Positions 371 through 30,724 of a stretch of DNA of 34,871 nt are shown here, piece after piece. The stretch is from assembly GCA_964356235.1 (NCBI GenBank), contig CAYHGJ010000002.1, forward strand, positions 1 to 34,871, read 5' to 3'. The notes under the pieces were generated by a model. That model was given only the letters and a program-made list of their open reading frames with translations, was not told the origin of the DNA and did no database searches. The DNA is from an uncultured Candidatus Saccharibacteria bacterium (GTDB lineage: Bacteria; Patescibacteriota; Minisyncoccia; Phycocordibacterales; CAYHGJ01). Made by a program: the position numbers and the translations under genes. Each line of letters opens with the position of its first letter. Within the stretch, counting starts at the first letter, position 1.

Positions 371-520
371 GCGGACAATGTAGCAAAAATAGACCCCTTT
401 TTGAAGAGGTCTGTTTTAGAGGGCCCCTTTCTTCATAAATGAAAATGCTTTTGATACAATTAAAGAAATACAAATCTAAATGATATATAGAAAACACACA
501 CAACAAAAAGGTTTACCCGT

Positions 521-646
521 ACACCAAAGATGGTATTGCGCGAGCAAGGTTTTTGCTAAAATTTATATCCAGAGTATTTCAAATGAACAAAACTAGTCAT
601 ATAAAATGTAGTAACGCGCAGAAAAAACAGATACCATCTTTGGTGT
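521..646 (+). promoter_or_regulatory. Long-range inverted repeat enclosing the pilin translation start
   Basis: ACACCAAAGATGGTAT (521-536) is the exact reverse complement of ATACCATCTTTGGTGT (631-646). It is extended by TGCGCG (537-542) pairing with CGCGCA (615-620). The enclosed loop holds the ATG at 583. Confidence 0.8.
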
Positions 647-1056
647 CCGGATTTACTCTAATAGAACTGATGGTGGTTATTGCTCTTATAGGCATATTGG
701 CCTCTGTTATTTTGGCCTCATTTTCATCTGTTAGAGAAAGAAACAGGGACAGTAAAAGATTATCGGATGTGCGAGAAATACAAAAAGCCCTCTCCTTGTA
801 TCAAATAGACAATGGCCGTTTCCCCGCCCCGACAAATCCAACGGAGATAGTCACCATAACAGGAGAAGATGAAATATCGCTTGCCCTAGAAGAAGGAGGC
901 CATATAAGCGCCGTACCGAAGGACCCACAACACGACACCCTTTCTTACACATACCAGGCAGATGAAAACGGATACGATTTCACAATAACTTTTTGCCTTG
1001 AAACAAACACAATAAGAAGCTTTGAGCAAGGTTGTGGCAACTCAATAAAACCATAA
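583..1056 (+). CDS. type IV pilin-like protein (prepilin N-terminal cleavage/methylation domain)
   Basis: Class III signal: basic leader then G|FTLIELMVVIALIGILASVIL. The ORF opens at TTG 553; ATG 583 is the more likely start. TAA stop. Confidence 0.8.
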   Translation: MNKTSHIKCSNAQKKQIPSLVSGFTLIELMVVIALIGILASVILASFSSVRERNRDSKRLSDVREIQKALSLYQIDNGRFPAPTNPTEIVTITGEDEISLALEEGGHISAVPKDPQHDTLSYTYQADENGYDFTITFCLETNTIRSFEQGCGNSIKP

Positions 1057-1070
1057 TACATAATAAACAA

Positions 1071-1529
1071 ATGGAGCAAGATTTTATAAGATGGAACGCA
1101 TACGAAAACAATGACCCCAGCCATCCAGATGACTGGTATTGGGCCTTGGCTATTCTATCTGTCGCTTTCGCTTTGACGGCCATTATTTTAGGAAATATGA
1201 TTTTCGCCGTTCTTATCATAGTAAGTGCTTTTTCTATCGCCCTACACTCAAAAAAGGCCCCTGATATTTATGAATTTGAGTTAAACACAAAAGGTGTCCG
1301 TATAAACGATAAAATGTACCCCTACCAGACACTTGAAGCTTTTTGGGTGGAAGAAGAGTTTAATCCACAAATAATCCTCCGCTCAACTAAAAAACTTATG
1401 CCTTATATATTCATCCCCCTTGGAGACGAGGATATAAATCTAGTCAGAAATTATCTTGTGCAAGTCTTGGACGAAGAACCAATGAGAGAGTCTCTTCTCC
1501 ATAAGATCGCAGAGTTTCTTGGTTTTTAA
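1071..1529 (+). CDS. hypothetical membrane protein
   Basis: ORF 1032-1529, with ATG 1071 (MEQDFIRW...) chosen to avoid overlap with the pilin gene. Two adjacent TM helices (WYWALAILSVAFALTAIILGNMIFAVLIIVSAF). A terminator follows. Confidence 0.5.
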   Translation: MEQDFIRWNAYENNDPSHPDDWYWALAILSVAFALTAIILGNMIFAVLIIVSAFSIALHSKKAPDIYEFELNTKGVRINDKMYPYQTLEAFWVEEEFNPQIILRSTKKLMPYIFIPLGDEDINLVRNYLVQVLDEEPMRESLLHKIAEFLGF

Positions 1530-3264: not shown

Positions 3265-4095
3265 ATGACAAGCGAAATTCTGCGAGTCATAAAAAAAATA
3301 CTGCCAGAGAAGCTCTTTAAGTTTTTCCAACCGACATATCATTATCTTCTTTCTTTTGCGGGAGCACTTTTTTATGGTTTTCCATCAAGAAAAATAAAAG
3401 TGATAGCGGTCACTGGCACAAAAGGTAAATCCACATCTGTTGAAATGATTAATACTATTTTTGAGGAGGCAGGATATCAAACAGCAGTTGCAAGCACTAT
3501 CCGTTTCAAGATAAAAAGTAAAAGTCAGAGAAACCTATACAAGATGACAATGCCTGGTAGGTTTGTGATGCAAAAATTTCTACGCGATGCCCTAAAAGTG
3601 AAGTGTGATTTTGCCATCATAGAAATGACCTCTGAGGGAGTGAAGCAATTTAGACACAAATTTATATACCTTGATGCTCTTCTTTTTACAAACATTTCTC
3701 CGGAGCATATAGAGTCCCATGGCTCATTTGAAAAATACTTGAAGGCAAAATTAAAAATCGCTGAGGCTCTCAACAATTCTCCCAAAAAAGACAAGCGGCT
3801 TGTGGTGAACGAAGATGATGAAAACTCTCAAAAATTTATAGACAAAGCAAAAAACGCAAGGGTGTTTTCATATAGCAAAAAAGCGTCAGAGCCAATTGAA
3901 ATAACCGACAATGGATCAAAATTTAACTTTCTGGGGCAAGATATTGAGAGCCCATTGCCGGGGCTATTTAACGTATACAACATGCTTGGAGCAGGAATGA
4001 TTGCCAAGTGTTTCGACATAGATCCAAAGACCATAAAGCAAGCACTTGCTAAAATCCACACCATAAAAGGGCGAGTAGAAAAAATAGACGAGTGA
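3265..4095 (+). CDS. Mur ligase family protein (MurE-like), N-terminal and central part, ends at an in-frame TGA
   Basis: P-loop VTGTKGKST, EMTSEG, and NISPEHIESHGSFEKYLKAKL (Mur ligase middle domain). Confidence 0.7.
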   Translation: MTSEILRVIKKILPEKLFKFFQPTYHYLLSFAGALFYGFPSRKIKVIAVTGTKGKSTSVEMINTIFEEAGYQTAVASTIRFKIKSKSQRNLYKMTMPGRFVMQKFLRDALKVKCDFAIIEMTSEGVKQFRHKFIYLDALLFTNISPEHIESHGSFEKYLKAKLKIAEALNNSPKKDKRLVVNEDDENSQKFIDKAKNARVFSYSKKASEPIEITDNGSKFNFLGQDIESPLPGLFNVYNMLGAGMIAKCFDIDPKTIKQALAKIHTIKGRVEKIDE

Positions 4096-4113
4096 CAAAA
4101 ATATGAGGTTGTA

Positions 4114-4569
4114 GTGGATTATGCTCACACCATAGACTCCCTAGAAAAATTGTACAGCGCTTTCCCAAATAAAAACAAAATCTGTGTGCTTGGAAACACC
4201 GGTGGAGGAAGAGATAGGTGGAAAAGAGGAGGTATGGCAAAAGTGGCTGAAAAAAACTGCTCCCATATAATACTCACAAATGAGGACCCATACGATGAAA
4301 ACCCTGAGGGGATAATAAATGACATGGCAGAGACAATAGAAGAAAAAGGAAAGCTCCAAATCATAATGGACAGAAGAGGTGCGATAGCGGAAGCTCTCAA
4401 AATAGCACAAAAAGAGACGGCAAGCCCCGATGAACATAAAAACTGGGTTATTTTGATTACAGGCAAAGGCACGGACCCTTATATAATGATAGAGGGGGGT
4501 AAAAAAATACCATGGAGTGATGAGGAGGTGGCAAGAGAAGAGATTAGAAAAATAATGAGCAAAATGTAA
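4114..4569 (+). CDS. Mur ligase family protein (MurE-like), C-terminal part, same frame as 3265-4095
   Basis: VDYAHT motif straight after the TGA at 4093-4095, then the C-terminal domain (GNTGGGRDRWKR, NEDPYDENP). Confidence 0.7.
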   Translation: MDYAHTIDSLEKLYSAFPNKNKICVLGNTGGGRDRWKRGGMAKVAEKNCSHIILTNEDPYDENPEGIINDMAETIEEKGKLQIIMDRRGAIAEALKIAQKETASPDEHKNWVILITGKGTDPYIMIEGGKKIPWSDEEVAREEIRKIMSKM

Positions 4570-8048: not shown

Positions 8049-8121
8049 CCGCCCGTAGCTCAGTCGGTAGAGCAGCTCCCTTTTAAGGAGAGGGTCGCAG
8101 GTTCGATTCCTGCCGGGCGGA
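8049..8121 (+). tRNA. tRNA-Lys, anticodon UUU
   Basis: Aligns arm by arm with canonical bacterial tRNA-Lys: CCGCCCG TA GCTC AGTCGGTA GAGC A GCTCC CTTTTAA GGAGA GGGTC GCAGG TTCGATT CCTGC CGGGCGG A. Confidence 0.9.
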
Positions 8122-8157
8122 CCTGAATAAAATATTTGAAATGAATCCACACACAAT

Positions 8158-12497: not shown

Positions 12498-12541
12498 CCC
12501 ATAGGATACACCTATGTATGTACATAGGTGTATCCTATGGG
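12498..12541. repeat. 44-nt near-perfect palindrome
   Basis: CCCATAGGATACACCTATGTA TG TACATAGGTGTATCCTATGGG: 21 complementary positions on each arm. Confidence 0.9.
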
Positions 12542-13358: not shown

Positions 13359-15041
13359 ATGGTACAGTTTAATGAAGATTATAAAAAGCGAGTTTCAGAC
13401 CTACGCAAAAAAGAGGAGGAGAATTTGGCACAGCTTCTTTCAAAAAAATATTCCGTCCGGTACAGTGACCTCTCTGGCGTCTCCATAAACACAGACGCTC
13501 TGCGCCTTATTAGTGAAAAGGTTGCCAGAGAAAACAAGATGGCCGCTTTTAAGCTTGTTGGCAAAAATCTAGACATCGCCGTCCTCTCTCCAAACAAAAA
13601 AGAAGCCCTAGCGGTAGTGCGAGAGCTTGAAGAAAGAGAATATAAAATCACACTTCACATGGTCTCTACCGCAAGTTTAGAGAGAGCTTGGGAGAGATAC
13701 AAGGACATCACCTTTTCCACAGAAACAAAGGAGGGGGTACTTGATGTTTCAAGTGAAGAAATAACAAAAATTCTCAAAAAAACAAAGGGGCTTAATGACG
13801 CAAGAAAAATCATACAAGAAATCCTAACTGCCAAAAAAGGTTTTCGCATTTCAAGAATTGTAGAGATTGTTGTGGCCACAAGTCTTGCCACAGGGGCATC
13901 GGATATACACATAGAGCCAGAGGAAGGATACATCAGACTGCGCTTCCGACTAGATGGCATCCTAACAGAGGTCTTAAATTTTGACAGAGAAACATACGAG
14001 CTTTTGCTTTCAAGAATAAAACTTCTCTCGGGACTTAAATTAAATATAAAAGAATCCCCGCAAGACGGGCGTTTTTCCATACGACTTGAAGAGTCCGATA
14101 TAGAGATAAGGAGCTCTACTCTCCCCGGGGCATACGGCGAAAGCATTGTCATGCGTATCCTAAACCCAGACGCTATTTCTGTGCCCCTTGAAGAGCTTGG
14201 TATGGATGATTATTTTTTGGAAATAGTAAAAAAAGAAATCTCCCGCCCAAATGGCATGATACTAAACACAGGACCAACAGGTTCTGGAAAAACAACCACC
14301 CTTTATGCTATCCTCAAAAAAATCCACACACCCGAAGTAAAAATAATCACCATTGAAGACCCTGTTGAATATCACCTCCCCGGCATTGTTCAGACACAAG
14401 TAGAAAAGGCAAAAAAATATACGTTCGCATCGGGTCTTCGCGCTTCTTTGCGACAAGATCCAGATGTCATAATGGTTGGAGAAATAAGAGACCAAGAAAC
14501 AGCAGAGATAGCCATAAACGCGGCTCTGACGGGGCACCTTGTTTTTTCTACACTTCACACAAACAACGCCTCCGGCACATTCCCCCGCCTTATTGATCTT
14601 GGTGTAAATCCAAAAGTCATTTCCTCTGCTATAAACCTTTCAATGGCACAAAGACTTGTACGAAAGCTTTGCAAAGATTGCAAAAAGGAGGCAACGGCTA
14701 CAGAGGCAGAGCTTGTAAAAATAAAAAGAATTATAGATTCAATCAAAGACAAGACTAGAATTCCAAAAGATTATAAAAAAGTATGGGTAGCGGGCGTTGG
14801 GTGCGCCACTTGTGAAAAAACTGGCTACAAAGGCAGACTTGGAATATTTGAAGCCATCGTTTCTGATAAAGAGCTTGAAGATGTGATACAAAAAAATCCC
14901 TCGGAGCGAGAGATAGAGAAAGCGTCAGAACATCAAGGCATTTTAAATATGAAACAAGACGGAATATTGAAGGTCTTGCGCGGAATAACTTCTATGGCGG
15001 AATTGGAGAGAGTGCTTGATTTAGATGTAGAAACAAACTAG
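13359..15041 (+). CDS. pilB: type II/IV secretion system ATPase (GspE/PilB family)
   Basis: Walker A GPTGSGKTTT, Asp box, Walker B DPDVIMVGEIRD, His box TGHLVFSTLHTN, and a CxxC...CxxC zinc motif. Confidence 0.9.
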   Translation: MVQFNEDYKKRVSDLRKKEEENLAQLLSKKYSVRYSDLSGVSINTDALRLISEKVARENKMAAFKLVGKNLDIAVLSPNKKEALAVVRELEEREYKITLHMVSTASLERAWERYKDITFSTETKEGVLDVSSEEITKILKKTKGLNDARKIIQEILTAKKGFRISRIVEIVVATSLATGASDIHIEPEEGYIRLRFRLDGILTEVLNFDRETYELLLSRIKLLSGLKLNIKESPQDGRFSIRLEESDIEIRSSTLPGAYGESIVMRILNPDAISVPLEELGMDDYFLEIVKKEISRPNGMILNTGPTGSGKTTTLYAILKKIHTPEVKIITIEDPVEYHLPGIVQTQVEKAKKYTFASGLRASLRQDPDVIMVGEIRDQETAEIAINAALTGHLVFSTLHTNNASGTFPRLIDLGVNPKVISSAINLSMAQRLVRKLCKDCKKEATATEAELVKIKRIIDSIKDKTRIPKDYKKVWVAGVGCATCEKTGYKGRLGIFEAIVSDKELEDVIQKNPSEREIEKASEHQGILNMKQDGILKVLRGITSMAELERVLDLDVETN

Positions 15042-15093: not shown

Positions 15094-15171
15094 CACCCCG
15101 TAGTAGATTTTGGCATTTATCTTGGAGATAGAACACTTGTAGCGCTCGATGCCAAAATTCACTACAGGGTT
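15094..15171 (+). repeat. ACCCTG-family inverted-repeat element
   Basis: Arms CACCCCGTAGTAGATTTTGGCAT (15094-15116) and ATGCCAAAATTCACTACAGGGTT (15149-15171), with 19 of 23 positions pairable and a 32-nt interior. Confidence 0.8.
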
Positions 15172-15176
15172 CAGAG

Positions 15177-15312
15177 GATAAACCTCTCCACAATACTTTT
15201 GACGCAAAGCGTCAAAAGCTAGAAAAATTTTCAAAGGATAACACCAGTCGAAACCAGTGTGTCCCCAAAATAAACCCATTTACTCGCAAAAGTAATTGTA
15301 GAGAGGTTTATC
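15177..15312 (+). repeat. second long inverted repeat in the pilB-ruvB spacer
   Basis: GATAAACCTCTCCACAA (15177-15193) pairs with TTGTAGAGAGGTTTATC (15296-15312) at 16 of 17 positions. The interior holds a perfect hairpin CTTTTGACGC-AAA-GCGTCAAAAG (15196-15218). Confidence 0.8.
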
Positions 15313-15408
15313 ACCTGAAAGATAAGAAACCAAACGCATAAAGCGTGCTATGTGATATTAAAACGAAGATTGTCAAAACTACCGGAAGCTTAACATAAAA
15401 TCATTCAA

Positions 15409-16419
15409 ATGTCAAGCAAAAACGATACCCCCAAAGAAGACTCATTTTTGGACCAGACACTACGCCCTAGCGCCTGGAAAGAGTACGTTGGCCAAGAAAA
15501 TATTAAAAAGAATTTACAGATTTTGCTTTCCGCCGCAAAGGGACGAAATCACCCGCCTGAACACTTGCTTTTCTACGGTCCGGCGGGCTTGGGCAAAACA
15601 ACGCTGGCATATCTTATAGCAAAAGAAACAGGTAGTCAAATGAAGGTAACCTCGGGCCCCGCCATTGAAAAAGTGGGTGATTTGGCATCAATTTTAACAA
15701 ATCTTTCTCCCGGCGATATTCTTTTTATAGACGAGATACATAGACTAAATAGAAATATTGAAGAAATCCTCTACCCCGCCATGGAATCCGGCGCCCTTGA
15801 TATCATCATAGGCAAAGGTCCGTCAGCCCGCACCATACAACTTGAACTCCCGCCGTTTACACTTATTGCTGCCACTACAAAAATAGCGATGCTTTCCACT
15901 CCGCTACGCTCTCGTTTTTCTGGCGGAGTTTTCAGGCTTGAGTTTTACACAGAAGATGAAATCGCCCAGATTCTTTCTCGCTCAGCAAAAATTCTTGGAG
16001 TTAATGCTGAAAAAAAAGCCATTGAGGAGATTGCCAAGAGAAGCCGTTTTACCCCGCGCACCGCAAACTATCTTTTAAAAAGGTCTAGGGATTTTACTGA
16101 GGTGCACAACAAACCTTTTGATGAAAAAGCTGTAATGGAAGCCCTGGCCCTTCTCGGAGTTGATCCGCTTGGGCTTATCCCGTCTGACATAAAACTTCTT
16201 GAAGCAATCATTCACAAATTTAACGGAGGGCCTGTCGGGCTAAACACCCTCTCTGCTTCTCTTTCAGAAGAAGAGGCAACGATAGAAGAAGTGCACGAGC
16301 CATACTTAATACAGCTTGGTTTTTTGGAGAGAACCCCGCGCGGAAGGACTGCGACAGAAAAAGCTTATGGGCATTTAAAAATAAAAATGCCGGAAAGTCT
16401 CCAAAATAAGTTAATCTAG
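15409..16419 (+). CDS. ruvB: Holliday junction DNA helicase RuvB
   Basis: LRPSAWKEYVGQE, Walker A GPAGLGKTT, Walker B LFIDEIHRL, C-terminal winged helix. Confidence 0.95.
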   Translation: MSSKNDTPKEDSFLDQTLRPSAWKEYVGQENIKKNLQILLSAAKGRNHPPEHLLFYGPAGLGKTTLAYLIAKETGSQMKVTSGPAIEKVGDLASILTNLSPGDILFIDEIHRLNRNIEEILYPAMESGALDIIIGKGPSARTIQLELPPFTLIAATTKIAMLSTPLRSRFSGGVFRLEFYTEDEIAQILSRSAKILGVNAEKKAIEEIAKRSRFTPRTANYLLKRSRDFTEVHNKPFDEKAVMEALALLGVDPLGLIPSDIKLLEAIIHKFNGGPVGLNTLSASLSEEEATIEEVHEPYLIQLGFLERTPRGRTATEKAYGHLKIKMPESLQNKLI

Positions 16420-25448: not shown

Positions 25449-25477
25449 TTGACATATAAACGTTTTGGGTGTATAAT
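25449..25477 (+). promoter_or_regulatory. consensus sigma70 promoter, unit 1
   Basis: TTGACA (25449-25454), 17-nt spacer, TATAAT (25472-25477). It starts 2 nt after the rnpA stop. Confidence 0.7.
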
Positions 25478-25721: not shown

Positions 25722-25750
25722 TTGACAAACTAGTTAATTAGGAGTATAAT
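25722..25750 (+). promoter_or_regulatory. consensus sigma70 promoter, unit 2
   Basis: TTGACA (25722-25727), 17-nt spacer, TATAAT (25745-25750). Confidence 0.7.
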
Positions 25751-25998: not shown

Positions 25999-26027
25999 TT
26001 GACATGCATTAATTATCAGAATATACT
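25999..26027 (+). promoter_or_regulatory. near-consensus sigma70 promoter, unit 3
   Basis: TTGACA (25999-26004), 17-nt spacer, TATACT (26022-26027). Confidence 0.6.
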
Positions 26028-28585: not shown

Positions 28586-28602
28586 TTGTTTTTTCAAAAA
28601 AT

Positions 28603-28641
28603 CACTCCACTCCGCCAGCTGGCGGATTGGGGTGGTTTTTT
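28603..28641 (+). terminator. intrinsic terminator
   Basis: CACTCCACTCCGCC-AGCT-GGCGGATTGGGGTGG followed by TTTTTT. Confidence 0.7.
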
Positions 28642-28655
28642 GTTTGAGGGGCATG

Positions 28656-28787
28656 CCCGCACACCAACCCTGCCATTATTTTACTTTGTCAGCAACTTAT
28701 TTTTTTCTATACTGATTAAAACGATAAGATGTATTAATAAAAATTATATATAAAAATAGTGAGGCGATGGCAGGGTTGGTGTGCGGG
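28656..28787 (+). repeat. 21-bp perfect inverted repeat enclosing a 90-nt AT-rich promoter-like segment upstream of tig
   Basis: CCCGCACACCAACCCTGCCAT (28656-28676) and ATGGCAGGGTTGGTGTGCGGG (28767-28787). The interior has TTGTCA (28686-28691), 16 nt, TATACT (28708-28713), pointing at tig. Confidence 0.9.
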
Positions 28788-28827
28788 TTTTGATTTTTTC
28801 TTAAAATTCGTATACCTTTAATGAGCG

Positions 28828-29841
28828 ATGACAACAATAAAAAAATTAGATAATAGCGAAGTAGAGATAGAGGCCGAAATAGAAGTGGACGTTTTAGACA
28901 AGCATTTCAACGAGATTTTAAATGAGTCTGTCAAAGAGTTTGAGACTCATGGGTTTAGAAAGGGCAAGGCCCCTCTCTCTTTGGTTAGGCAAAAAATAGG
29001 AGAGAAGTACCTTTTGGATGAGGCGGGACTTTCTGCCATAGAAGAAGAATATTTATCTATATTGGAGAAGGAAAACATAAAAGCCATTGGCTCCCCCGCT
29101 GTCACTATAATCAAGCTTGCGCTTGGCAACCCTCTTTTATTTAAGATAAAAACTGCTGTTTTGCCAGAGTTTACCCTTCCGGACTATAAGAAAATTGGAA
29201 GTGAAGTAAACAAAACAAAAATAAAAGAAGAAGAATTATCTCCAACAGAGGAGGAGATAAAAAATGTTTTGATGCAAATAAGAATGTCAGGAATGTCTCA
29301 AAAAGAAAAAGAAGACAAAAAAAAGCCGGCAGAGTTGACAGATGAACTTGCTAAAAAGCTTGGCGCGAAAGGCAAGGAAGACTTGGAGAAAAAAGTAAAA
29401 GAAAATCTAACACAAGAAAAAACTTATCACCATAAAGAAAAGAAAAGAGCTGAGATTTCTGAAAAACTTATCGCAAGCACCGAGATTTTATTGCCGAGCA
29501 TTTTAGTAGAAAATGAATTGTCAAAAATGCTCGGGGAGTTTGGTGCAAACATTGAAAAAATGGGTCTCAAAAAAGAAGATTACCTTAAAAAAATAAACAA
29601 GAGTGAAGAAAAATTGAAAGAAGAATGGAAGACGGATGCAGAAAAAAGAGTGAAACTTCAACTTGTTATAAATAAAATTTCTGAAACAGAAAAACTAATT
29701 CCAGACCGTGACAAGGTAAAAAGAGAGGCGGAGCACCTGCTCCACCATTATAATGACGCTTCTCCGGAGAGAGTGCTTGATTATGTGGAGATGATAATGA
29801 CTAATGAAACAGTATTTGATTTTCTAGAAAATCAAAAATAG
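28828..29841 (+). CDS. tig: trigger factor, short form lacking the PPIase domain
   Basis: N-terminal ribosome-binding signature GFRKGKAP. The sequence passes from the N domain directly into the helical C-terminal arm region. 337 aa. Confidence 0.8.
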   Translation: MTTIKKLDNSEVEIEAEIEVDVLDKHFNEILNESVKEFETHGFRKGKAPLSLVRQKIGEKYLLDEAGLSAIEEEYLSILEKENIKAIGSPAVTIIKLALGNPLLFKIKTAVLPEFTLPDYKKIGSEVNKTKIKEEELSPTEEEIKNVLMQIRMSGMSQKEKEDKKKPAELTDELAKKLGAKGKEDLEKKVKENLTQEKTYHHKEKKRAEISEKLIASTEILLPSILVENELSKMLGEFGANIEKMGLKKEDYLKKINKSEEKLKEEWKTDAEKRVKLQLVINKISETEKLIPDRDKVKREAEHLLHHYNDASPERVLDYVEMIMTNETVFDFLENQK

Positions 29842-29876
29842 TCAAAATGTGTTAGAATATAAAAGTCGTTAATTTA

Positions 29877-30010
29877 TCCGCACACTGACCCTGTTATCGT
29901 CTAATATTTTGATGATTGAGACTTACCATTTGGTTTTGTATAATAAGGGTGGTATAAAGAGATACCCGATTTATTACAAAGACAAAATAATAACAGGGTT
30001 AGTGTGCGGA
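29877..30010 (+). repeat. 21-bp inverted repeat (20 Watson-Crick pairs plus one G.T) enclosing a 92-nt promoter-like segment upstream of clpP
   Basis: TCCGCACACTGACCCTGTTAT (29877-29897) and ATAACAGGGTTAGTGTGCGGA (29990-30010). The interior has TTGAGA (29916-29921), 17 nt, TATAAT (29939-29944), pointing at clpP. Confidence 0.9.
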
Positions 30011-30615: not shown

Positions 30616-30640
30616 AAGGGAGCAAAAAAGCGCAAAAAGC

Positions 30641-30679
30641 AACCCCCCACTTGGCGGTTAAACCGCCAAGTGGGGGGTT
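30641..30679. terminator. 39-nt perfect palindrome after clpP
   Basis: AACCCCCCACTTGGCGGTT a AACCGCCAAGTGGGGGGTT. No clean U-run follows. The TTGTCA at 30678-30683 overlaps its end. Confidence 0.6.
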
Positions 30680-30724
30680 GTCAATAGGGGGGTTTTATGG
30701 TAATGTCAAAAATGGAGGTGATAT

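Follow-up and report, generated by a model that had tools for sequence, protein, structure and literature searches.

The stretch of DNA considered here, in the following called the window, comprises 34,871 nucleotides (positions 1 to 34,871 of contig CAYHGJ010000002.1, assembly GCA_964356235.1) of a Patescibacteria metagenome-assembled genome (MAG) from Hainich groundwater. One part of it carries nusA, two unknown open reading frames (ORFs), tig, clpP and rny, with dnaA located 4 kb upstream, and the identities of tig and clpP were confirmed by Pfam. A pair of 21-nt inverted repeats enclosing about 90 nt precedes tig and a related pair lies between tig and clpP; they are referred to as elements A and B. 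A preliminary description of the window had singled out both pairs and had proposed that they might be promoter switches flipped by a recombinase, processing stems in read-through transcripts or members of a mobile palindrome family. The coordinates, lengths and sequences of the arms proved to be exactly as given there. Both inverted repeats are real, while a third related pair at 516-536/631-651 had been overlooked. This pair, element C, was found by a whole-window inverted-repeat scan and is located at the start of a prepilin gene.

Inverted repeats at tig, clpP and a prepilin gene

The arms of element A (28656-28787) are complementary at 21/21 positions and those of element B (29877-30010) at 20/21. 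Exact occurrences of CCGCACACNNACCCTG are limited to four in the window, each within an arm of A or B, and a shuffled window is expected to contain 0.04 matches to a 24-mer arm consensus when up to six mismatches are allowed. The left arms of A and B differ at positions 1, 10, 11, 18 and 19. Four of these five differences are mirrored in the right arm and position 11 results in G.T on the plus strand, in agreement with the four compensated differences and the single G.T that had been noted earlier. On both strands, A and B fold far better than shuffled sequences (z = -7.3 to -8.5). The arm consensus reads YCCGNACACYRA...AT with a spacer of 86-94 nt, and the centre-to-centre distance of paired arms is nearly constant (107-115 bp). 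Within the arms neither an inverted repeat longer than 4 bp nor internal dyad symmetry was found, and the interiors of A and B contain no ORFs.

Comparison with relatives is informative about the history of both sites. L002, the closest relative found, has the same gene order and a Tig protein with 75% identity; L003 is more distant (53%). The spacer upstream of tig has a length of 92 nt in L002 versus 242 nt in the window, and the tig-clpP spacer measures 100 nt versus 192 nt. In L002 the flanks of both spacers are conserved and the arms are absent at the tig as well as the clpP site. L003 also lacks elements at both positions. Upstream of tig, the L002 sequence reads GGTGGTTTTTTG-ATTTTTTCTTAAAATTCGTATACCTTTAA; in the window the same terminator T-run and the same 34-nt block are present, with about 150 nt including A between them. 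As the 34-nt block is identical in L002, which has no A, it represents native tig upstream sequence that was left intact by the insertion. At the second site, the extended -10-like motif that follows the tig stop codon in the window is matched at the same position by TGTTATAAT in L002 and by TGGTAATAT in L003, and both the window and L002 have CTCATAACCCAAAACTCAC-ATG at clpP. B is situated between the extended -10 and CTCATAACCCAAAACTCAC-ATG. The motif is likely to be the native clpP promoter, outside and upstream of B, and clpP transcripts would then contain the whole of B. Given the empty orthologous sites in L002 and L003, gain of A and B in the lineage of the window is the parsimonious reading. 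Their absence from the nearest relatives argues that A and B are not fixed regulatory sites or switches.

Element C shares its first 11 nt as well as the terminal AT and the overall length with the rest of the family, but differs in the inner half of both arms. It is flanked by a 4-bp duplication, TTTA, at 512-515 and 652-655. The start codon of the prepilin gene (position 583) lies within the interior of C and the right arm falls into the coding sequence of the prepilin leader. Whereas the pilins of relatives begin with MNKKG|FTLIEL, the protein of the window has MNKTSHIKCSNAQKKQIPSLVSG|FTLIEL, and the insertion point is the TTYA of the GGN-TTY-ACN (G|FT) cleavage motif of the pilin gene. The L023 locus, from the same sample as L002 and with a pilin of 71% identity, is organized as ATGAACAAAAAAGGA-TTCA-(134-nt element)-TTCA-CTTTGATAGAA; here, the ancestral MNKKGF start is still intact upstream of the left arm. 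In L025 the pilin locus is uninterrupted. The pilin locus provides direct evidence of insertion with a 4-bp target duplication. C has also been exapted, since the start codon, the larger part of the leader, the cleavage-site glycine and an extended -10-like motif are today contributed by the element. Further upstream, the motif TGATACAAT at 452-460 is kept as TTTTGATAGAATTA in L023, L024 and L025.

A second variant was noticed in L024 (254-378; Logan SRR26582958). It is 125 nt long, has the arms CCCCGAACGTAAA..., which start with CCCCGAACG, and occupies the pilin TTCA used by C. It is translated in frame from the ancestral ATG, resulting in a 53-aa leader. This element may be an independent insertion at the target of C, and if so would indicate target specificity or strong selection for insertions that restore the leader.

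Further copies and evolution of the arms

Additional copies were obtained by exact-match pattern scans of public collections and from relatives' loci that were retrieved. Nine loci of the family are known from at least five genomes, with three copies located in the window (Table 1). Element length is 125-136 bp (about 130 bp), and all further copies have paired arms and interiors of 86-94 nt. In other Patescibacteria the copies occur at unrelated loci, i.e. between infB and rbfA, beside tRNA genes and past a terminator. The L024b copy has an empty counterpart in the corresponding spacer of the window. The left arm of A is identical to the arm of L005, which belongs to a GC-rich genome. Three ORFs on the L005 contig match PF18895 (Pfam, T4SS-pilin-like), all of them slightly below the gathering cutoff (E-values 8e-6 to 3e-4), and from these small proteins we take the contig to be presumably of candidate phyla radiation (CPR) origin.

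Two-arm exact patterns did not yield matches in GTDB genomes because the real copies have one arm mismatch. With a degenerate single-arm pattern, seven loci were recovered from the same collection, and a partner arm was present only in L012 and L014; L008-L011, L013 and the viral match L015 have no partner arm and were dismissed as chance matches. The metagenome matches L004 and L007 turned out to be low-complexity sequence or unrelated palindromes. Solo arms were not detected in about 72 kb of the main loci (window, L002, L003, L005, L012 and L014), and a paired-arm scan of all loci examined (about 210 kb) did not reveal copies beyond those listed.

Outside the arms, A on the plus strand aligns with B on the minus strand, so that B is inverted relative to A. 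Polarity is marked by TATTTT..TTTGT after the arm on one side and ..CG before the arm on the other. Alignments restricted to the interiors of A-type copies gave z-scores of about 3-5 in the assigned orientation and of about 0 if one of the partners was flipped. Both orientations are found for the elements as a whole and not just for their interiors: relative to the flanking genes, A, L005 and L012 are in sense and B and L014 in antisense direction. A 4-bp target duplication is visible as TTTA at C and L012 and as TTCA at L023 and at L024 254-378. We also considered that the duplications of A and B might have been separated by a flank swap through A-B inversion, but the flanks do not fit.

Between copies the arms are better preserved than the interiors. 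In the six A-type copies, identity amounts to 76-100% for the arms and to 46-64% for the interiors, the interior of A sharing 52-63% identity with those of other copies. The arm sequence is thus under constraint between copies and also between CPR classes, as would be anticipated of ends to which a transposase binds. At the same time the two arms change together. In the six distinct arm pairs, 96% of cells pair and 9/21 pairs show two-sided changes, and the corresponding covariation values were reached by 0/500 shuffles; the co-variation that had been deduced from A and B was thereby extended to the family. The orthologous C copies of the window and L023 have diverged to a similar degree in the arms (71-81% identity) and in the interior (70%), yet 19/21 and 18/21 arm positions still pair. 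At three positions both arms have changed; in each case a codon of the leader is altered in the right arm and, in parallel, the non-coding left arm. Co-evolution of the arms is thus upheld even at a fixed locus. L014 and L024b keep the same G.T mismatch despite interiors that have diverged to 55% identity, which means that any homogenisation of arms is not rapid. The preliminary description had pointed out that the G.T of B would be a valid G.U pair only in a plus-strand RNA. An argument for such an RNA does not extend to other copies, whose one-sided changes result in wobble pairs on either strand without preference. Neither strand of the copies folds consistently better, and a strand-specific RNA reading from wobble pairs and fold energies was given up for want of a consistent strand.

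The interiors of A and B each enclose a promoter-like motif. Shuffled interiors reach at least 10/12 matches on the given strand in 7% of cases for A and in 4% for B, which makes a chance origin of the two motifs improbable. With B being inverted relative to A, they reside in non-homologous parts of the element, and none of the three other copies scanned (L005, L012 and L014) contains a motif with at least 9/12 matches. Promoters were for these reasons discarded as a feature of the family. The enclosed promoters of the preliminary description exist as motifs and are unlikely to have arisen by chance, but they do not characterize the elements, and the conserved extended -10 of clpP is outside B. 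Elsewhere in the window, perfect 12/12 sigma70 promoters (TTGACA-17-TATAAT) are found on the plus strand at 25449-25477 and 25722-25750 and an 11/12 match at 25999-26027, all between rnpA and nusA. The perfect matches at 25449 and 25722 indicate that this CPR genome uses canonical sigma70-like promoters, and the cluster suggests strongly expressed small genes or RNAs in this region.

Table 1. Coordinates of elements A, B and C, of associated features and of further family members
Feature	Position	Strand	Remarks
Terminator-like hairpin and T-run of upstream gene	28595-28642	+	A lies between hairpin and conserved tig block
Element A, left arm (terminal inverted repeat)	28656-28676		CCCGCACACCAACCCTGCCAT, 21 nt
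Element A, interior	28677-28766	+	90 nt, 21% GC
TTGTCA-16-TATACT in A	28686-28713	+	hexamer scan, 10/12
Element A, right arm	28767-28787		ATGGCAGGGTTGGTGTGCGGG, 21 nt
34-nt block TTTTGATTTTTTCTTAAAATTCGTATACCTTTAA between A and tig start	28788-28821	+	identical in L002
Extended -10-like TGTTAGAAT	29850-29858	+	directly past tig stop codon, upstream of B
Element B, right arm in family orientation	29877-29897		TCCGCACACTGACCCTGTTAT
Element B, interior	29898-29989	- (family orientation)	92 nt, 29% GC
TTGAGA-17-TATAAT in B	29916-29944	+	hexamer scan, 11/12
Element B, left arm in family orientation	29990-30010		ATAACAGGGTTAGTGTGCGGA
Element C	516-651		arms 516-536 (CCCGTACACCAAAGATGGTAT) and 631-651, 94 nt between; older diverged family member
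Extended -10-like TGCTAAAAT in C interior	554-562		
Prepilin gene	583-1056	+	23-aa leader MNKTSHIKCSNAQKKQIPSLVSG from C interior and right arm
L005 copy	470-597		beside tRNA-Leu genes; arms and four flanking bases identical to A; interior 49% GC
L012 copy	3660-3793		between infB and rbfA, Paceibacterota MAG
L014 copy	3797-3932		Saccharibacteria MAG
L024b copy	L024 1248-1382		starts at stop codon of ORF matching window 1032-1529, in spacer before tRNA-Arg

A probable mobile element family and alternative explanations

[quoted passage not shown] Size, lack of coding capacity, conserved terminal inverted repeats, occurrence at several non-homologous loci and presence or absence at orthologous loci are all those of MITEs. 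The suggestion of a mobile MITE- or REP-like family in the preliminary description is supported by the empty orthologous sites, the opposite orientation of A and B, the unrelated loci and the target duplication at the pilin gene. The family of about 130 bp is apparently undescribed so far. A full-text literature search on CPR bacteria retrieved no description of MITEs, invertons or REP-like elements. An Rfam scan of the window at gathering threshold and E-value scans of three regions gave only tRNAs and generic hairpin noise; in Rfam 15 there were only weak long-hairpin matches to plant miRNA precursors, far below threshold.

According to this proposal, the 21-nt arms would be terminal inverted repeats bound by a putative transposase supplied in trans, which would explain why arms are conserved between copies. 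Both elements were inserted in the lineage of the window, A separating the upstream gene's terminator from the native tig upstream block, and B separating the likely native promoter of clpP from the start of this gene. The older C entered the pilin TTYA with a 4-bp duplication and now gives start codon and leader peptide. Complementarity of the arms might be kept because a hairpin, formed in RNA or in single-stranded DNA while the element transposes, is selected for, or else through template switching or conversion within the element. Transcripts crossing a whole element, such as clpP mRNA across B, would form a 21-bp duplex and with it an RNase III-type substrate; cleavage is proposed by analogy, as this is the kind of duplex that RNase III cuts in mRNAs containing Correia elements. 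The strong sigma70-like motifs in the loops of A and B, and likewise the extended -10 of C, would produce transcripts devoid of the 5' arm that escape the duplex. We infer that the loop motifs of A, B and C reflect local exaptation, not the design of the element.

Several observations do not sit well with a MITE-like family. No transposase or autonomous parent was found: among the 40 ORFs of the window scanned against Pfam, 12 of them without any hit, there were no recombinase, transposase or Y1 transposase domains, and plasmid and phage collections contained no match to the arms. A, B, L014 and L024b do not have a clean target duplication and L005 has only CATG/CGTG. In addition, A apparently carries 13-14 extra nt on its left side, TTTGAGGGGCATG, which is atypical of a simple element with terminal inverted repeats; the extra sequence was deduced from the L002 empty site and resembles the L005 flank. 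The interior is held at 86-94 nt while its sequence decays, and this fixed length may reflect a spacing constraint that is not predicted by a plain MITE model. Binding of a transposase does not by itself account for the concerted change of the arms where the locus is fixed. Finally, only nine loci are known, the public scans having required exact matches.

The concerted arm drift at the orthologous pilin locus, together with the 86-94-nt spacing, is not accounted for by a plain decaying MITE, and this leads to a modified view, in which the arms are kept paired by selection and not only by descent. The family would then be a hairpin cassette recruited by CPR hosts: transcripts from upstream would be cut or silenced at the 21-bp duplex, and the promoter in the loop, which in the case of the pilin is accompanied by the start codon, would take over. 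As a variant, a recombinase acting in trans might flip the loop and render pilin, tig and clpP phase-variable in an ultra-small bacterium. We regard this view as unlikely, although a little less so than the explanation of the elements as selected RNA stems, which would make the 21-bp duplex an RNase III-type processing or insulator site in read-through transcripts, or a 5'-untranslated-region regulator, with mobility being secondary. Arms 90 nt apart pair readily in RNA but would hardly extrude as a cruciform from duplex DNA, which is in favour of such stems, as are the predicted folding (z about -8), the maintenance of pairing under sequence drift at the orthologous C locus and the conserved upstream promoters at 29850-29858 and 452-460 that would read through B and C, respectively. 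RNase III has been shown to cut Correia inverted repeats in mRNA (PMC10969869). However, RNase III does not need arm sequences to be conserved between unrelated loci and distant genomes, and the copies lie in either orientation relative to flanking genes. The indifference of wobble pairs and fold energies to the strand does not fit a selected transcript either, and the tig and clpP genes of close relatives do without the elements, their sites being empty. RNase III-type stems, one of the three explanations of the preliminary description, may plausibly result from insertion, as with Correia elements, but do not plausibly explain how the elements originated.

It is less probable still that the elements are promoter invertons with interiors of about 90 bp that are flipped by a recombinase encoded elsewhere, switching tig, clpP and the pilin gene on and off. 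Conserved arms around variable interiors would be in line with such switches, the promoter-like motifs of A and B face the downstream gene, and C encloses the start codon of a pilin gene, a classic phase-variable target. Repeated arm-to-arm recombination could produce concerted arm evolution as a by-product. When the L023 interior is flipped, an open frame leads from the ancestral ATG into the pilin; by our estimate this would happen by chance in about 6% of cases and is suggestive only. Inversion has been reported for Correia elements (PMC10969869). Against invertons stands the absence of the elements from the orthologous sites of the nearest relatives and their presence at unrelated loci elsewhere, indicating that each moves as one complete unit. 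In none of the A-type copies is the interior flipped, the asymmetric sequence beside the arms being of one polarity throughout, and three assemblies from different samples (window, L001 and L006) agree in orientation. Moreover, the arms lack the internal dyad symmetry expected of a recombinase dimer site, and L005, L012 and L014 are devoid of promoter-like motifs. The Pfam scan of the 40 ORFs agrees with the earlier remark that no recombinase is visible in the window. We know of no invertible segment as small as 90 bp. Insertion polymorphism, orientation as whole units, the three concordant assemblies, arms without dyad and the lack of a recombinase among the scanned ORFs speak against the inverton proposal, which we regard as improbable. 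In L012, a large serine recombinase is encoded about 700 bp from the family copy and beside tRNA genes; it is integrase-like.

A pair of operator sites between which a regulator, for example of a chaperone/protease regulon, loops the promoter DNA could explain two identical inverted 21-bp sites with a near-constant spacing of 107-115 bp upstream of tig and clpP. This is very improbable and in fact close to refuted, since the sites are absent upstream of tig and clpP in relatives. Other copies are found at infB-rbfA, at tRNA genes and inside the pilin gene, and a regulator would not require complementary drift of both sites. To our knowledge the arms are unlike CIRCE, CtsR or HspR operators, and CIRCE and CtsR operators were rejected on comparison with their consensus sequences. 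Integron attC sites were set aside in the same way, as RYYYAAC/GTTRRRY and bulged bases are missing. Xer dif-like and hix-like sites were excluded by the lack of dyad symmetry in the arms, DNA uptake sequences by the lack of solo copies and retron a1/a2 repeats by the lack of a reverse transcriptase.

Returning to the MITE-like family, its resemblance to the Correia elements of Neisseria (CREE/NEMIS) concerns size (about 100-155 bp), inverted repeats (about 26 bp as compared to 21 here), the lack of an ORF and the frequent location immediately upstream of genes. The core of Correia elements is conserved and includes an IHF site, and their target duplication is TA. The family described here, in contrast, has barely conserved interiors of fixed length, and its duplication is 4 bp (TTYA) where visible, with several copies lacking one. 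Its arms are unrelated in sequence and come from another phylum, and the cleavage and promoter activity are only predicted here. Correia elements supply sigma70-type promoters, their mRNA hairpins are RNase III substrates, their presence varies between strains and inversion has been reported; Rickettsia palindromic elements (RPEs) enter genes in frame and are translated together with the rest of the protein (PMC10969869, PMC2649163). Like RPEs, the family consists of small palindromic elements in reduced genomes, and C and L024 254-378 are translated in the prepilin leader. RPEs are mostly found in mature protein regions, whereas here a leader cleavage motif is affected, the G|F site is rebuilt and most other copies are intergenic. 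As far as we can judge, no sequence is shared with Correia elements or RPEs. REP/REPIN elements, which RAYT transposases mobilise, likewise form long hairpins from two inverted units and are intergenic, and several copies have no clean duplication. In REP/REPIN, compensatory evolution keeps the hairpin. A REP unit is, however, a short palindrome preceded by GTAG, while the arms described here have no internal dyad of more than 4 bp and are separated by a loop of about 90 nt instead of a short one. Membership in REP/REPIN was dismissed as the arms are not palindromic and the 40 scanned ORFs of the window include no Y1 transposase domain. Promoter invertons such as those controlled by Mpi in Bacteroides or the flgB switch of C. 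difficile with its 21-bp repeats combine repeats of about 20 bp with a short promoter segment and use one and the same repeat at several loci. The present elements differ from them as whole units that are insertion-polymorphic, with one orientation seen, no recombinase nearby and a segment of 86-94 bp.

CPR/Patescibacteria genomes are about 1 Mb in size and thought to be poor in mobile DNA, and most lineages cannot yet be manipulated. Near-invariant 21-bp ends common to Paceibacteria-like and Saccharibacteria genomes suggest that a putative enzyme mobilises the elements and that DNA is exchanged between CPR classes. Copies are located in control regions of the core genes tig, clpP and infB-rbfA. 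Type IV pili are considered central to the episymbiotic lifestyle of CPR bacteria, and the rebuilt leader and start of a type IV pilin gene are a concrete example of how expression in a minimal genome has been rewired by a mobile element. With the help of the conserved ends, the transposase could be traced and genetic tools could eventually be developed. For annotation, the elements are a warning that sequence alone is insufficient to call such repeats invertons. Their interest would grow if pairing proves to be selected or inversion is found.

Other structures and genes

Further repeats and structures were noted in the window and its relatives. The inverted pair at 15170-15319 (25-nt arms, 100 nt apart) had to be considered as a repeat-flanked promoter of the A/B kind. 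It forms part of a structured element of about 150 nt (15165-15325, plus strand) with a 25-bp closing stem and two inner hairpins, located upstream of ruvB in the 367-nt spacer between a T2SSE/PilB-like ATPase gene (13359-15041) and ruvB (15409-16419). Including its interior, this element is conserved at the same position in L017, L019, L020 and L021, and RNAalifold analysis of the five sequences gave 43 pairs, 15 of them with compensatory two-sided changes. Because of this conservation in four relatives and the covariation, membership in the A/B kind was rejected. A comparison with Rfam yielded no match below E = 0.03, and the structure is a candidate for an undescribed noncoding RNA or a ruvB leader of Paceibacteria.

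Two pairs of inverted repeats are interleaved in L012, at 1052-1077/1322-1347 (26 nt, 96%) and 1107-1127/1503-1523 (21 nt, 100%). They surround the start of the large serine recombinase gene (1366-2943), beside tRNA-Leu and tRNA-Cys, and could represent an invertible or integrative module that is unrelated to the element family. In the window, perfect palindromes are present at 12498-12541 (21-bp arms, 2-nt loop) and, directly past clpP, at 30640-30680 (20-bp arms, 1-nt loop), the latter resembling a minus-strand terminator.

ARAGORN called a tRNA with anticodon TTA ('tRNA-Stop') at 8049-8123 on the plus strand, with the anticodon loop CTTTTAA. By comparison with E. coli tRNA-Lys, we take the surroundings to resemble tRNA-Lys(UUU). 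The 'tRNA-Stop' call probably does not denote a suppressor tRNA but a misregistration by one base that results from a G.A mismatch in the anticodon stem. A Mur ligase gene (3265-4569, plus strand) is divided into two ORFs of the same frame by a single in-frame TGA at 4093-4095. TGA terminates 3/33 of the ORFs counted, that of the Mur ligase included, and the codon could be due to a sequencing error, a pseudogene or TGA read-through.

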